This document shows, piece after piece, positions 1 to 5,773 of a stretch of 5,773 bases of DNA. The first letter of the stretch is position 1, and every line of letters starts with the position of its first letter. The stretch comes from an uncultured bacterium. GTDB lineage: Bacteria > Caldisericota > Caldisericia > B22-G15. A program made the position numbers. The DNA lies in the NCBI GenBank assembly GCA_965612865.1, contig CBFDTJ010000078.1, forward strand, positions 1-5,773, read 5' to 3'.

Positions 1-3000
1 AATGATACGGCGACCACCGAGATCTACACCTAAGCCTTCGTCGGCAGCGTCAGATGTGTATAAGAGACAGCTTAAGACCTTCTCAAAATCATTCCAATCA
101 ATTTTTCTTTTTGCCAATATTTTGTTAAGTTCTTTAACCTCCTTTAGAATATTTCCATCAAGATTAAGAGATTTTGTTGTCTTTTCAAGATAGGGCTTAA
201 GTTCAGAGACCACCTTTATCTTTTCTGTTATGTATTCTGATTGTTCTTCCTCTATGAAGAAATCAAGTTGAAGCTGCTCCTTAGGCTTCTGTCTCTTAAT
301 ATCCACATATCCAATAAGAGAATTTCCATCCCTCAGATTAAAATGAACATTTGGAAATCTTATGAAAATATCTTTTTCTTTTCCTACTTTAAAGTGTTTT
401 GCAAGGGTTAAAAATAATCTTGCCTTTGCCACTTTCAAAGCAGAAGGATTAATGTCCACTCCATAGATGTTCTTTGAAAGAATTATAAAGAATTTGATGA
501 GCAGTTTAAATTTATCATCATCCGATATTTCAAGCAGATTTATTGTTTTGATTTCACCTTTCTCATCCGCTGCTATAATTTCCAACCCTTTCTTTATGCC
601 CAGTTCTATTGCTTTTTCCTTAATTTTCTCATATATGTTCACAAGCACATTTATAGCACTTTCAAGGAAGTGAGCAGAACCGGCAGCGGGATCAAGAATT
701 TTTATCTCCTTAAGTTGTTCAAAAAGATAAAGAAGAATTTCCCTATCGTTACTTTCGATTATCTGATCAATAGCTTCAAAGTTTCTCTTGAATTTCTCGT
801 TGACTCTATCAACAAGATATGGCTCAATGGTGTTTTTGCAGATATAAGAAGTTATTTCCTCTGGTGTGTAATAAGCCCCTAATTTTTTCCTTTCCATGTA
901 GGTGATTAACTTCTCATAGATTGCACCAAGCACAAACTCATCTATGTTGCCCTCTGTCCAGTCTCTACTTTCAAATAGATTTAAAAGAGAAACTTCCTTA
1001 CTCACTTTCTTTGGCGGGGTGTTTATCAAGCTATCAGTCATTCCTTCTTGGTAGAAGCATTTATCAGGAATTGATATTGCTTTACTGTGCTCACCGTTTA
1101 AGAAAATAGCAGGTCCTATAACAACTGCCCTTCCAACGATTTTATCTTCATAATATTCACTCTCCAAATTATTGCTTACTTTTTCAAAGAAATATGTGAG
1201 AAATTCATAATAGTTTTTGAATCCACCAAAAAGTTTTTTCTGCTTAAACTCTTTAAACTTGGTAATGAAGTAGTTTTTATCATTGTTGAAAAATCCCCTT
1301 TCCTGCAGATACCAGAGAGTAAGCATTTGCATCATGAAATTATCAACAAATTCCTCTCTCTTTTCTTCTTCAGGTATACCCTTGATGTTTTTAAGCAGAT
1401 ACTCTCTTGCCTTCTTATAAAGAATATAAAACTCTTCAATTACATCGCTCCTGTCAAATAATTTGCTGAAATTTTCTTCTTTTGGTTCACTCAGAGCTTT
1501 TTTGAGTTTATTCAAAAATGTTTTATTGATTTTCTTAAGAGTTTTTATTATGTACTTGTTCTTTCTGTAATCTTTAAGGAGCAGATGACCGTCATAAAGA
1601 ATAATGCCTATTCTTGGTGCATATCCGCTGACCGGTGGTTTATATCTGGTTTTTAAATATGAAACTTCACTCTTATTATCTACCTCAACAAACAGGAAAC
1701 CTTCAAAGATGTTTAGATCCTCATCGCAAAGCTCAGGAACAATGTAAAGAGTATATTGTTTATCTGATATTCTGATATGTTTTACCTTATATTTTTGAAG
1801 TTCTTTTAACAGAAATTTGTGTATTTGTTCCTTCATAGACTATCACCATACACAATTGCATTTTATTTTTCTATAATCCAGCCCTAATGCTGACCACATC
1901 TCAATAGTTTCCTTACACAAACCAACTCTTTCGAATCCGTAGGTTTTATGTAGTGTATTTATAATGGTATGGTACATTTCATATCTTGTTTTGAAATCTA
2001 CTTTTCTTCCCCAATTTGAAGATTCTTTCAAATATTTAACCCATGTCCTATCAGTACATCCATTGATAGTGCTTTGCAACCCCCTTAATGAACCTAAGGT
2101 TATTCTTTCTGGTGTAAGATTATTAAAAATCAAGTCAAGTAGTTGCAAATAATATTTCTGCCAATTTTCTATTGGGACCATAGGATCTATTCTAATTCTC
2201 ACTTCATAACCGGCCTCGAAAACTTTTCGTGCTGCTTCTATTCTTTTTAATACATGGGGAGCCTTTTCCCATCTTTCTGCTACTGGAATCGCATTAAGAC
2301 TAAAACTAATTATTACTTGTTTATGAGGCTCAATTTCCAATAAATTTTTAACATTTGCTGATTTTGTAACAAATAAAACTTTATGCCTTTGCTGCTTTTC
2401 AAAAAGTGGAATTATAAACTTTGTAAATGGTAGCTTGGCTTGCTCATTCATTAAAGAATCAGCAATTTCTCCTGTATTTAAAATCTCTGGTTCTTTGACT
2501 TCACTTAAAAATCTTTCCACATGTAATCTAATTTTATCATACGGTTTTACTACTGGAGATTTGCCTTCGGGTCTAAATCTAAATGTTCCCTTAAGGTAAC
2601 ACCAAGCACAGTCATAAGGACAACCATAAGCCCACTTAAGTTCAAGGAAATGAGGGCAAATAATATCTGTTTTCTTCTTAGGTAAAGGTGTTTTGTCAAA
2701 TCTTTTAATAATAGATCCATCTCCTACTTTTGTAACCAAAATTTTCTTTCTCCCATCTAAAAGAGAGTATACTTTATAATAAACTTTAACTTGGGATTTT
2801 CTTAAATTAGTATCTACTAATAAAATAGAGTGCTTCAGGTTAGACTTCGGAAAGATTATTTTATCTTTTCCGCTCAAACCTTTTGTCGTTTTTGAAGTGA
2901 CCCTTATTATGTTTACTCTTCCTTCCTTTTCAAGTTCTTTCAATGCTTGTCTATATTCTTTTTCTACAAATCGAGTATCTTGATATGTTTCTTCCAAAAT

Positions 3001-5773
3001 TTCATCAAAAGTTTTACTTTTTCCTTTAAATATTTTCAAAAGATATTCTTTAAGAGAAGATATAGTGTCATCAAATAGCTTTTGCTGATGTCGGTATAAA
3101 CTTTCCTTAGGTCCTAACCATGCAAAATTCCCTGATGCACCTTGTTTTTTCATTATATCCTTCATTATTTTCAACCCGTGAAAATGATTCGTCGCATGTA
3201 TAAGATAATAAAGAGTTTGGTACTTCTCATCCATATAAACTCTGAAAGGAAATACATATTTTATCCCCGCTATTTCCTTTAAAGATTTTACATATAGATT
3301 CAAAAGCGCTCTGTCTCTTTCCTCCCAACTTTGAATTTGATAAATTTGTTTCCATTCGGAAGTTGGGTATAAAGCATTTAAATGCTTTTCAACCTGCGGC
3401 AACCCTAAAAAGCGATTTATATCACGGGTCATAAAGGTGAAAAAAATTTCAGTCCGAGGTAAAGAAAGAATATCTTTAACAGCTTCGAATGGAACTCCAC
3501 TAAATCCAAATGGATCTATGAAGAAAAAAGAAGGTGCAATTCTTACACCAACTTCTTTAACTAATTTACTTACTACATTAGCAAATTCGTCATTTATAAG
3601 TAAGATTTCTATTTTATCCTTAAATTTCAAGTTTTCTTTCTCTCTGTTAATAACAGATTGGAGGTTTTTAAAGTTATCTTTGTCTTTTTCAACAGCCACA
3701 CAAAGGAATTTATCAAAATAGGGTTTTCGCTCTTTTTGTTCACAATATCGTAATAATTCATCTGCGAGCCTTAAAGCGATTATTGGAGAACCTACAGTTA
3801 GAACTTTACCAGTTTTTTCATCAATGTACTCGCCTCTCCCTGCAAATCCATCAAAAAATATGATTTTTCTATGAAATTTTCCCAATTTAATTATCCATAC
3901 ATATAAATATTTCTTCAAAAGTTCATGTTTCACTCTTGTATGTTCCCTATATATCCATTTTTCAGGTGTTGAATCTTTATACCTCATAGTACCATCCCAC
4001 ATGCTTAACTCTAACTTTTAGAGATTCTATATCTGTAAGTCCTTTCTCTCTGAAAAATTCGTATAAGGTTTCAACAACACCCTTGAAATCTTTGATAACT
4101 ACGTTATCCCTGTTCAGCTCAATAAGGTTTTTACCAGTAAGTAGCGGTTTTGTTTCTCTTGAGTAAAGATAATATGGAATGGTCTGGAGCGCAGTCATAA
4201 CAACCTTAAATTTGTTTTCAATACCTTCTGCCTTTTTTCTTTCCACAAGCAGAGCGTTATATAGGTTGTAAAGAAATCCTTTTTGCTCCTGTCTATAACC
4301 TTCTTTAAGCTCTTCAACAGTTATATCTGTCTTTTCTTTCATTTTCTTTAAATTTTCAACAACATTCTCGATTCTTTGTGGAGCTTTTTCTTTTCTTTTA
4401 ATTAAATTGAGAAAGATAAGCGGAGTTTCATATTGTATTTCTCCATTTTTTGATATACTCATTATTTTTTTCATAATTTTGTACTTTCCACGGTAGAATT
4501 CATAAATACTCACGACCTTATTCTCACCATCAATAAATGAATAATAAGGCCCATCTCCCATCTTCATAACTTCCTTAAAATCATCTACTGTATAACCAAG
4601 TTCATATTGAATTAGGTTTAAAAGCTTATATTCATCAAGTTGCTCCTTCGGTATTCCTTCAGGAATAAATTCTTTAAAATCCTCTGAGATCCCATATTGT
4701 TCTAAGTCTGTCATGGAAAGTTTTGATATATCTTTGATTTTCTCGCCGAAGGTTTCTATGCTTATTTCTTCCTCTGGAGACAATATCTTTACATCCTTAC
4801 CCACTATTAGAGTTATATCTTCGATCTTTTCCTTGAGCTTTCTAAGAACACCAACTATAACTTCTATTTCATCAGATGGAACATAGTTTATTACATAAAC
4901 ATCCTTTTCATTGCCTATTCTGTTAACCCTTCCAACTCTCTGAACAATAATCATTGGATTCCACGGCAAATCATAATTTATAACGGCATCCGCATCTTGA
5001 AGGTTTACTCCCTCACTCAATGCATCAGTTGATATCAAAATCTCAATCTCTCCAAATTTTCTTACCTCTTCAAAACCATTATTTGCTGTAGGAGCAAAGC
5101 GCTTTATGTAGTTTATCTTTGTTGGTGTTTCTGTATCTCCTGTTACAAGTGCTATTTTGATCCTATCCTTTTCGTCCTTAAGCCATGTATGTAAGTCAAC
5201 CTCTTTTTTTATCCATTCCCGGAGATTATGATAGAGATAATAAGCGGTATCTCTATATTGTGTAAAAATTATGATTTTCCTTCGATTCAATGATGGGATA
5301 TTTTTATCTTTTAATTTTTCTGACATAAAAGAAGGATTTCCTATTATCTGTTTCAGTGATTCAAGTTTTGGATCTTGTGAATACACATATATTGGAAGAT
5401 CAACAATATCCTCTTTTTTCCTTGGAATTTTGCCAAGGATCTTAAATTCTCCGTTTTCTTTCAATTTATCAAATTCAAAAAATATACTATCCATAAACCT
5501 CAGATCATTTTCTAAATTCTCAAGAACCTTCTTTAGTCCAAGTTTTAGCAGCTCAATATCTGAATACTGTTTTCCTTCTTCTTTTAACTCCTCTGCATAT
5601 TCAAGGAGAATTTTTACTACTCTATCAAACCAGGTTTCTTCATCCTCTTCTTCTATATTGTATTCTTCCTTAATCTCCTCAAGCTCTTTATCTATTTTCG
5701 CTCTCTCAACTGCAGATCTGATCAGGTCTTCAAGATAATCTTCATTCAAGATTTTATCCATTTCTGCCTTGAA

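Follow-up and report, generated by a model that had tools for sequence, protein, structure and literature searches.

A TcmP–radical-SAM fusion protein encoded between an HKD-SNF2 helicase and an N6-adenine methylase: a candidate DNA-directed module

Gene layout of the contig and its full-length counterpart

The window, which is the whole stretch of DNA analysed, comprises one 5.8-kb contig with three tightly packed, co-directional ORFs on the minus strand. The ORF calls agree with the survey's finding of a fusion gene placed between an SNF2-type helicase gene and a type IIG-like gene on one strand. Both flanking genes are indeed cut at the contig ends; the helicase gene lacks its 5´ end and the methylase gene its 3´ end. 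The features are as follows.

1..70, no strand: sequencing adapter, non-biological, read directly from the bases
71..1836, minus strand: Eco57I-type N6-adenine DNA methyltransferase gene (type IIG / PglX / DrmMI-like), 5´ portion covering about 589 of its 1139 codons, from ORF and profiles
1843..4002, minus strand: complete fusion gene, 719 aa (TcmP, winged helix and SPL-like radical SAM), from ORF and profiles
1846..2808, minus strand: radical-SAM domain with SPL fold, residues 399-719, from PF20903 and structure comparison
2599..2622, minus strand: CxxxCxxC radical-SAM cluster motif, Cys461/Cys465/Cys468, followed by Tyr469, invariant in alignment A1
2902..3090, minus strand: winged helix-turn-helix, residues 305-367, from PF22560 GMT-wHTH (E 6.5e-13)
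3142..3945, minus strand: TcmP domain with RlmJ-like Rossmann SAM-methyltransferase fold, residues 20-287, from TIGR04474 and structure comparison
3977..5773, minus strand: HKD(PLD)-nuclease and SNF2 helicase gene, 3´ portion covering 598 of its 1224 codons, 5´ end cut, from ORF and profile matches

The helicase stop and the fusion start overlap by 26 nt, or by 11 nt if the fusion starts at Met6 (position 3987), near which its homologues begin in alignment A1. The methylase ATG lies 6 nt past the fusion stop. As called, the methylase ORF extends over positions 1-1836 (612 aa, 3´ end cut). Its last 23 residues are an artefact because bases 1-70 are adapter, which we take to be Illumina P5, an index and the Nextera mosaic end. 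The mosaic-end motif is located near the ends of 80 of the 111 contigs of the assembly. The G+C content of the contig is 0.325, compared with 0.365 for the genome, and is the second lowest among the 111 contigs. The tetranucleotide distance ranks 26th among 36 contigs of similar size, and by this measure the contig is no compositional outlier.

A metagenome contig (L024, 13.4 kb) that is 99% identical carries the full operon. The 598-aa helicase fragment matches Helicase_C (E 3.4e-20) and the PADLOC model C3a139 'HKD+Snf2' (E 1e-54), which agrees with the HKD/SNF2-type label given earlier, but the HKD and SNF2 N-terminal parts are missing from the fragment and are observed only in the full L024 gene (L024:1699-5373, 1224 aa, 95% identical to the fragment). 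The latter matches PLDc_2, RE_NgoFVII, SNF2-rel_dom and Helicase_C, together with C3a139 (E 2.3e-163). The L024 operon also gives a match to HmaA (E 2.5e-28). The methylase fragment matches N6_Mtase, MmeI_Mtase and Eco57I, and its reported match to PADLOC REase_MTase_IIG is reproduced (E 1.4e-29). The full methylase (L024:7514-10933, 95% identical) matches Eco57I (E 2.1e-31), N6_Mtase and REase_MTase_IIG (E 2.9e-57). Pfam matches its methylase part alone, and the PADLOC IIG models also span residues 121-353, although none of these matches identified a nuclease family. The downstream genes of L024 are an ABC ATPase of the SMC_N/AAA_23 type, which resembles mad3/LmuB/PtuA, and pieces of PD-T7-3. 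With these genes, L024 is a defence island.

Domains and conserved residues of the fusion protein

The N-terminal region of the fusion matches TIGR04474 TcmP over model positions 1-262 of 263 (E 5.9e-60, 203.4 bits against a cut-off of 53), and PADLOC PDC-M30A covers residues 13-365 (E 1e-41). The winged helix appears in the structure model as three helices and a strand hairpin (residues 314-366), and PF20903 SPL matches residues 457-631 (E 3.9e-18). The domain figures reported earlier for TcmP, GMT-wHTH, SPL and PDC-M30A are closely reproduced on the 719-aa protein.

Compared with solved structures, the TcmP model matches RlmJ, the 23S rRNA m6A2030 methyltransferase (PDB 4blu, 6qe5), as a whole domain (6qe5_A: VIA Z 17.0, 226 of 270 residues aligned, rmsd 3.4). 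RlmJ residues K18, S100, P101, D164 and P165 correspond to invariant K25, S72, P73, D163 and P164 of the TcmP domain, and the motif I Asp/Gly is also conserved. Lys18 and Asp164-Pro165 are described as catalytic and Ser100 as SAM-binding in the available part of the RlmJ study (PMC3814359). The N-terminal Tyr4/His6 of RlmJ (motif X tail) is present in the fusion protein as YREH and is missing in a divergent subgroup (L014, L017, L007). Motif IV of TcmP is DPFG, not DPPY. The identity between TcmP and RlmJ is about 20% in a MAFFT alignment, and hhalign of A1 against RlmJ gives a weak local match (E 0.062). The fusion differs from RlmJ further in its attached winged helix and radical-SAM domain and in having no ribosomal context. 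Judged from the aligned residues and the modelled fold, TcmP is homologous to RlmJ, an m6A methyltransferase, and keeps its catalytic Lys and Asp-Pro; the retained RlmJ residues predict that the domain is likely catalytically competent.

The radical-SAM model (range 399-697) resembles SPL 4fhf (VIA Z 17.1, 233 aligned, rmsd 3.5), and a phmmer search of the domain reaches the SPL chains at E 2.5e-9. The CxxxCxxC motif, which aligns with the SPL cluster motif, is retained in 108-110 of 110 domain representatives, and Tyr469 aligns with SPL Tyr98 (SPL numbering is from PDB entry titles). Four extra conserved cysteines (449, 696, 715 and 717) are absent from SPL; together with the cluster motif they are kept in 104-110 of the 110 representatives. 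The domain is likely catalytically competent, as predicted from the kept cysteines. Compared with SplB (TIGR04070; PDB 4fhc/4fhf), the domain shares the fold, CxxxCxxC and the following Tyr, whereas the identity is 18% and SplB has neither the four cysteines nor the TcmP fusion. The hydrogen donor Cys140 of SPL corresponds to invariant Ala514 of the fusion, a position occupied across the 110 clade representatives by A (35), S (29), C (15), G (10) and T (8). Identification as a true SPL is rejected, with TIGR04070 scoring 76.8 bits against a cut-off of 400, TIGR03886 scoring 45.3 against 437.55, and Cys140 replaced by Ala. The earlier description as SPL-like holds for the fold and the cluster motif but does not extend to a genuine SPL. 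PADLOC models give no match to the radical-SAM domain at E 0.01. Other fusion partners within the same radical-SAM clade are a type I specificity subunit (P0126) and, in 11 of 28 long representatives, ParB-like domains.

Distribution and genomic settings of the family

Within the phylum the fusion gene is unique to this genome: the other 92 of the 93 genomes lack it, both of those from the same genus among them. The family as a whole is no rarity: 536 matches, with more than 500 full-length relatives, are distributed across bacterial and archaeal phyla, and a metagenome search returned 590 loci. Some members are encoded by split gene pairs, and others lie on contigs of archaeal viruses; two copies plus TcmP lie beside capsid genes in three IMG/VR virus contigs and in L016.

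Of the 94 loci with at least one neighbouring gene, 25 carry a restriction-modification gene no more than two ORFs from the fusion, in at least five layouts; this is not an unbiased rate, since the 101 loci surveyed are those with the highest scores and some of them are near-duplicates. The layouts are as follows.

IIG methylase downstream: 8 loci
IIG methylase upstream: L010, L085, L090, L034
Type III Mod-fusion-Res: L033, L035, L043, L045, L047, L070
Fused HsdR_N-methylase-S: L066, L067, L080
Other methylases or HsdR: L003, L017, L030, L059

At least 13 changes of restriction-modification context are needed on the tree, and exact insertion at the Mod-Res or the helicase-methylase junction is seen repeatedly, in separate clades. 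Many copies reside amid housekeeping genes, as in recA-fusion-recX-alaS (L005), jag-fusion-mnmE (L012) and, in seven loci of one clade, mtnA-fusion-mtnP. In L011 the fusion lies 4.5 kb from recA. Translation-related neighbours occur at about 14 of 94 loci: AlaS (L005, L014, L015), MnmE (L012), QueH (L011, L019), MiaB-like (L009), TrmO (L017), IleS (L099) and SelB (L081). Large serine recombinases adjoin the fusion in L065, L068, L069, L079 and L080, and an integrase or transposase does so in L043 and L045.

The fusion has the helicase on one side and the methylase on the other in eight loci (L024, L025, L026, L028, L029, L032, L040 and L036, of which L036 is cut). The trio is kept while identity drops to 62% for the fusion and 61% for the methylase, which supports treating the three genes as a conserved unit. 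The fourth gene varies, encoding an ABC ATPase in L024 but Fic in L032 and L036, and helicase-methylase pairs without an intervening gene exist in the same phylum (L136, L140). Of the proposed three-gene defence island, the conserved unit and the island setting of L024 stand, whereas the fusion is often located elsewhere and the pair exists without it. A more fitting description of the fusion is a cassette set within a helicase-methylase pair. It can work without the flanking genes, because many copies have housekeeping genes around them and no restriction gene close by.

Relation to known systems and proposed function

Among known systems, the closest likeness is to the PADLOC candidates PDC-M30 and PDC-M41 (TcmP with DUF5131 'Gp37/Gp68'). 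The N-terminal 365 residues of the fusion match PDC-M30A, and TcmP is paired with a radical-SAM-type enzyme in both cases, each of them a candidate system. In contrast, the partner here is another radical-SAM domain, not DUF5131, and it is fused. No DUF5131 match was found in the three contig proteins (Pfam) or the L024 ORFs, whereas a true DUF5131 (L006) matches PDC-M41B at E 1e-119 and PDC-M30B at E 1e-115. We class the fusion operon as a variant of this candidate kind, and TcmP is shown to partner with two different radical-SAM families. Radical SAM mobile pair A/B (TIGR04471 / TIGR04470) similarly combines a DUF5131-like with an SPL/COG1533-like radical-SAM protein, but no pair-A gene is present on the contig and scores fall far under the cut-offs: the fusion radical-SAM domain matches pair B weakly (E 0.0012, 18 bits against 410) and L006 DUF5131 matches pair A with 84 bits against 355 (E 1.4e-23).

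The type-2 BREX-related (Hma-like) system consists of a DUF499 ATPase, an N6-methylase, an HKD-SNF2 helicase and DUF3780, according to the accessible portion of Rakesh and Krishnan (2026, PMC12839542). The operon shares with it an N6-adenine methylase and a Swi2/Snf2 helicase that bears an HKD-endoDNase at its N terminus, and differs in having the TcmP-radical-SAM fusion and an ABC ATPase instead of the DUF499 ATPase and DUF3780. Neither of the latter is among the ORFs of at least 89 aa in the 13.4-kb L024, and Hma was rejected. DISARM, whose core genes are DrmA, DrmB and DrmC, was rejected with no DrmA or DrmB (DUF1998) among the L024 ORFs and partial DrmD-/DrmMI-like matches (95 bits against 610), and BREX with 42.9 bits against a cut-off of 500 for PglX models and no PglZ or BrxC among the L024 ORFs.

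The best explanation, to which we assign a probability of about 0.5, is that the fusion is a two-enzyme, DNA-directed module embedded in a restriction-modification-like operon, where it writes or processes a base modification. The RlmJ-type SAM methyltransferase domain and the winged helix would bind nucleic acid, and the SPL-fold radical-SAM domain, with a predicted second, four-cysteine metal site, would use a 5´-deoxyadenosyl radical on a flipped-out DNA base. In this genome, where its gene is flanked by those for the HKD-SNF2 nuclease-helicase and an N6-adenine methyltransferase in a BREX-related/Hma-like operon, the module may be co-translated with both and act on the same DNA, most likely by writing or further processing a base modification that would be read by the restriction arm. 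The fusion probably performs chemistry on DNA. We infer DNA as the target because the same radical-SAM clade is fused to an HsdS-type subunit (P0126) and ParB-like domains, copies lie beside capsid genes on virus contigs, and the nearest solved fold, SPL, acts on DNA. The kind of chemistry and the role in defence are likewise inferred. Counting against this explanation, RlmJ is an rRNA enzyme, the hhalign match is weak and motif IV is DPFG. The inconstant fourth gene and the many copies among housekeeping genes also count against it, as do the helicase-methylase pairs without the fusion, which suggest that the fusion may be an independent lodger.

Such a lodger would be mobile and self-contained, a small defence or modification system in its own right that enters restriction-modification operons and other sites but does not work with the helicase and methylase beside it. 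This rather unlikely alternative draws on the copies lying alone among housekeeping genes, the adjoining recombinases, integrase and transposase, the intact pairs in L136 and L140, and the absence from both same-genus genomes and the rest of the phylum; unrelated defence genes embedded in multi-gene systems are also described in the available part of Payne et al. (preprint 10.1101/2024.01.29.577857). The trio has been kept over a long divergence with similar loss of identity in fusion and methylase, the reading frames overlap or nearly abut, and the precise insertion recurs in separate clades, all of which argue against it. The role of a DNA-repair enzyme, in which the SPL-like domain reverses or removes a lesion, perhaps from neighbouring enzymes or stress, and TcmP binds the lesion or DNA, is improbable. 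The repair enzyme SPL is the nearest solved fold, Tyr98 is kept and two copies lie at or near recA, but the hydrogen-donor position is Ala514 and variable in the clade, the NCBIfam SPL score is far below its cut-off, the dominant neighbours are restriction-modification rather than repair genes, and the specificity-subunit fusion and virus carriage suit modification better. In the earlier proposal that the fusion marks or repairs DNA with the helicase and IIG enzyme, the three-gene unit is upheld, and marking or repair would be a putative activity. An RNA-modification enzyme, with the RlmJ-like domain methylating and the radical-SAM domain further modifying rRNA or tRNA, is very improbable: RlmJ is the closest structure to the N-domain and translation-related neighbours occur, but by a rough estimate without a computed control their number does not exceed expectation for common housekeeping genes, the gene is missing from nearly all phylum genomes, unlike a core RNA-modification enzyme, and the HsdS, ParB and restriction-modification links point to DNA.

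A bolder and tentative proposal, clearly less probable than the best explanation, is that the module places on DNA a base modification not known before, which restriction-modification-like systems would use as a second self-label and archaeal viruses to escape restriction. The radical-SAM modifier would be targeted by its fused partner, i.e., the RlmJ-like methylase with its winged helix, an HsdS subunit or ParB. If true, prokaryotic immunity would include an epigenetic DNA chemistry of a new class. Very few radical-SAM enzymes are known to act on DNA; before the phage thymidine-hypermodification enzyme, SPL was the sole DNA-associated one, as stated in the available text of a 2021 paper (PMC8989533). 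The TcmP family, so far functionless, gains a specific biochemical prediction as an RlmJ-type, N6-adenine-style methyltransferase. With hundreds of members, highly conserved active-site residues, and settings in several types of restriction-modification operon and on viruses, the family is a concrete candidate source of novel DNA chemistry in conflicts between hosts and viruses.

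Gene layout of the window and of the complete operon

The window (contig C78, 5773 bp) comes from an assembly of 1.42 Mb in 111 contigs, which is 87.6% complete. It holds three ORFs.

Genes of the window and domain matches of the fusion
3977-5773, minus strand: HKD-SNF2 helicase, 598 aa, 5´ end cut
1843-4002, minus strand: fusion, 719 aa, complete
1-1836, minus strand: Eco57I-type N6-adenine methylase, 612 aa, 3´ end cut
Fusion residues 20-287: TcmP (TIGR04474), 203 bits against a cut-off of 53
Fusion residues 305-367: GMT-wHTH, E 6.5e-13
Fusion residues 457-631: SPL, E 3.9e-18
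Fusion residues 13-365: PADLOC PDC-M30A, E 1e-41

Packing is tight: the helicase gene ends within the first codons of the fusion, and 6 nt separate the fusion stop from the methylase ATG. In PADLOC, the helicase fragment matches 'HKD+Snf2' at 1e-54 and the methylase fragment matches REase_MTase_IIG at 1.4e-29. The domain matches and the packing thus confirm the survey's finding of a TcmP, winged-helix and SPL fusion between a helicase and a methylase on one strand. Window bases 1-70 are an Illumina P5/index/Nextera adapter, so the last 23 residues of the methylase ORF are an artefact. Untrimmed adapter occurs at the ends of 80 of the 111 contigs, which would give false ORF ends throughout the assembly.

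A metagenome contig of 13,456 bp (L024), whose fusion is 99% and whose two neighbours are each 95% identical to those of the window, carries the complete genes and a fourth one.

Genes of L024
Helicase, 1224 aa: N-terminal PLD/NgoFVII-type HKD nuclease, SNF2 domain and Helicase_C (C3a139, 2.3e-163)
Fusion, 719 aa
Methylase, 1139 aa: Eco57I-type N6-adenine methylase
ABC ATPase, 478 aa: SMC_N/AAA_23 (mad3, 3.5e-19), also LmuB-, PtuA- and GajA-like
L024:12459-12986 and L024:13068-13454: PADLOC matches to PD-T7-3, model positions 1-175 and 209-329 of 432

The ABC ATPase gene overlaps the methylase stop by 4 nt. Downstream of the operon, the two consecutive ORFs that jointly span most of PD-T7-3 look like a split or truncated gene. 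The L024 locus is a defence island. Several known systems were considered for the operon. The L024 ORFs lack DrmA and DrmB, PglZ and BrxC, and DUF499 and DUF3780, for which reason DISARM, BREX and Hma (Type-2 BREX-related), respectively, were set aside; DUF499 and DUF3780 belong to the Type-2 definition given in PMC12839542. MADS was rejected on its weak matches (mad3, 3.5e-19; mad2, 1.2e-18).

Spread and neighbourhoods of the fusion family

A word-indexed search returned 536 relatives of the fusion. Of the 120 top matches, 116 have lengths of 691-732 aa, at least 98% query coverage and 58-98% identity. Source names include Marinimicrobia, Latescibacterota, Planctomycetota and a Methanophagales archaeon. 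Species-representative genomes contributed 21 fusion loci and metagenome contigs 590, the best 80 of which were taken on. The two enzymes also occur as separate genes: a TcmP gene is followed by a radical-SAM gene of ~320 aa in L018 and L020, and two overlapping ORFs in L021, one TcmP and one radical-SAM, represent either a true split or a frameshift. A class II aldolase gene lies downstream in L021.

Within the phylum of the window, the fusion is present in 1 of 93 genomes, with the next best match 29% identical, and TcmP alone in 11 of 93. Both helicase and fusion are absent from the two genomes of the same genus (96% and 91% complete). The G+C content of the contig is 0.325 compared with 0.365 for the genome, the second lowest of the 111 contigs; its tetranucleotide usage is no outlier. 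The phylum distribution and base composition fit a horizontally acquired island. The contig may instead be mis-binned, although no specific sign points to this.

ORFs were called in 101 loci, the 511 neighbours were clustered, and Pfam and PADLOC were run on cluster representatives and immediate neighbours. Of these loci, 94 have one or more neighbouring ORFs, and in 25 of the 94 a restriction-modification gene lies no more than two ORFs away. This count is indicative and no rate, since the set of 101 consists of the top-scoring loci and contains near-duplicates.

Gene contexts of the fusion
Eco57I-type methylase directly downstream, HKD-SNF2 helicase upstream wherever the contig extends: L024, L025, L026, L028, L029, L032, L036, L040
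Eco57I-type methylase upstream: L010, L034, L085, L090
Type III Mod upstream (MTase_III, 5.5e-112) and Res helicase downstream, fusion between mod and res: L033, L035, L043, L045, L047, L070
Fused HsdR_N-methylase-specificity protein upstream: L066, L067, L080
Other methylases or HsdR: L003, L017, L030, L059
cinA-ligT-recA-fusion-recX-alaS: L005 (L005:1405-5368, uncultured bacterium)
yidC-jag-fusion-mnmE: L012
fusion-alaS: L014, L015
IF-2B/MtnA-like isomerase gene-fusion-PNP_UDP_1 phosphorylase gene: L072, L081, L087, L088, L091, L093, L095

Three further loci adjoin Lamassu (L041, L051) or a Shedu-like gene (L060), and five adjoin large serine recombinases. Lamassu lies directly downstream of the fusion (L051:1613-7004; L041:3145-3840; LmuA 2.3e-143, LmuB 9.4e-265). 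In a FastTree phylogeny of 73 full-length proteins, restriction-modification context requires at least 13 changes; the window falls within a clade of seven helicase-fusion-methylase loci, and L040 is placed elsewhere.

Many loci have housekeeping genes as the sole flanks of the fusion. In L005, the fusion lies exactly between recA and recX; it has either inserted into a conserved repair operon, or its position hints at a connection with DNA damage. The MtnA-like and PNP_UDP_1 neighbours are methylthioadenosine/5´-deoxyadenosine salvage-type genes. A functional tie to 5´-deoxyadenosine salvage was considered but is kept as no more than a weak hint, as this context occurs in a single clade with ~80% identity among its members.

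The survey's interpretation was a three-gene defence system in which the fusion acts in concert with both neighbours. Its restriction-modification neighbours were borne out (the 25 of 94 loci), and the strict three-gene system was weakened because housekeeping genes are the only neighbours in many loci. The fusion could also be an independent lodger cassette, a reading that we regard as possible but doubtful.

Structure and likely chemistry of the two enzymes

An AlphaFold2 model of the fusion was built from 28 sequences (mean pLDDT 77). By Foldseek and VIA-align, residues 10-343 match the structures of RlmJ, the 23S rRNA m6A2030 methyltransferase, and its homologue LPL1258; 6qe5_A aligns with the TcmP domain over 226 of 270 residues (Z 17.0, rmsd 3.4), and generic methyltransferases rank next (Z ~14). 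When eight TcmP domains are aligned with E. coli RlmJ by MAFFT, Lys25, Asp51, Gly57, Ser72, Pro73, Asp163 and Pro164 are invariant in all nine sequences and correspond to RlmJ Lys18, Asp40, Gly46, Ser100, Pro101, Asp164 and Pro165. According to the RlmJ study (PMC3814359), catalysis requires Lys18 and Asp164, and Ser100 and Asp164 bind the amino-acid moiety of SAM. In contrast to the RlmJ-type DPPY, motif IV of the TcmP domain reads DPFG. Profile comparison of the family alignment with E. coli RlmJ (hhalign) gave a weak local match of 25 columns at motif I (E 0.062), and a phmmer search of the PDB with the N-terminal 380 residues gave nothing meaningful (best hit a GST, E 0.36). The homology to RlmJ therefore rests on structure and the MAFFT motif alignment. 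Judging from the conserved residues, TcmP is a divergent RlmJ-type SAM methyltransferase and probably active.

Residues 399-697 superpose on SPL 4fhf (233 aligned residues, Z 17.1, rmsd 3.5). The CxxxCxxC motif (Cys461, Cys465 and Cys468) and the following Tyr469 (SPL Tyr98) are kept as in SPL, but SPL Cys140 aligns with Ala514. An exhaustive domain search returned 1610 cluster representatives at E ≤0.001 and 165 at ≤1e-30. Across 110 aligned domains, CxxxCxxC occurs in 108-110, the cysteines at 449, 696, 715 and 717 occur in 104-108, and position 514 is variable. This conservation suggests that the four extra cysteines form a second metal or Fe-S site, which SPL is not known to have. The radical-SAM domain is far more conserved than the TcmP part. 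The genome carries a second, unrelated SPL-superfamily gene (G000:C95:3108-3647; L002:1195-2049; 284 aa, PA0069/Rv2578c-like, 3.1e-33), which is found in all eight other genomes of the family and is probably a core gene there.

The N- or C-terminal partner domains of this clade were surveyed in 28 long representatives.

Partner domains of the radical-SAM clade
ParB/Noc-like, 11 of 28: P0131, P0133, P0135-P0138, P0144, P0147, P0152, P0181, P0210
TcmP, 4 of 28
Inteins, 3 of 28: P0134, P0167, P0194
Type I specificity subunit, 1 of 28: P0126, 802 aa, complete two-TRD, MAD5-like, 62% identical in the radical-SAM domain
No named extra domain, 9 of 28

Viruses carry these enzymes as well. Three archaeal virus or provirus contigs from IMG/VR (L127-L129) and the related L016:2090-5410 each encode two SPL-like radical-SAM paralogues in tandem and a TcmP gene in convergent orientation, at a distance of ~2-3 kb from genes for capsid and cement proteins. 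The capsids of L128 and L129 share 98% identity with that of L016. Both the fusions to DNA-sequence readers and the virus carriage suggest that the substrate is DNA and that it is modified rather than repaired. A repair enzyme, the reading to which the SPL likeness might lead, thus appears unlikely. That the fusion modifies RNA seems, beside these indications, highly improbable.

The PADLOC phage-defence candidates PDC-M30 and PDC-M41 pair TcmP with DUF5131. At L006:12038-12931, a canonical DUF5131 gene (PDC-M41B, 1e-119; PDC-M30B, 1e-115) is convergent to the fusion, and this locus carries both kinds of TcmP partner. Unlike this DUF5131, the radical-SAM domain of the window matches no PADLOC model, so the window is a second kind of TcmP partnership, whose enzyme is SPL-type rather than DUF5131-type. 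A literature search found no description of such a pairing and no link of the GMT-wHTH name to the gamma-mobile-trio; it returned passing table mentions for TcmP, three-Cys-motif partner and TIGR04474, and PADLOC output lists for PDC-M30, PDC-M41 and GMT-wHTH. In their main texts, the BREX-related systems paper (PMC12839542) contains none of 'radical SAM', 'RlmJ' and 'TcmP', and the MADS paper does not contain 'radical'.

The fusion within the helicase-methylase pair

Homologues of the HKD-SNF2 helicase occur in 20 of 93 genomes of the phylum, and six helicase regions were compared. The methylase follows the helicase directly, with no gene between, in L136 and L140, and lies one to three ORFs away in L135 and L138; BLAST found no match to the methylase in L137 and L139. 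Because relatives in the phylum have the pair with no gene between, the window layout is a helicase-methylase pair with an embedded fusion. This agrees with the 'guilt-by-embedding' pattern described by Payne et al. (preprint 10.1101/2024.01.29.577857). The three-gene arrangement is kept down to 62% fusion and 61% methylase identity, which argues for a long-standing association under selection in this lineage. The reading that we consider most likely, at about an even chance (roughly 0.5), is that the fusion is a methyltransferase/radical-SAM module that acts on DNA, sits within an HKD-SNF2/N6-methylase operon of restriction-modification-like type and works together with it.
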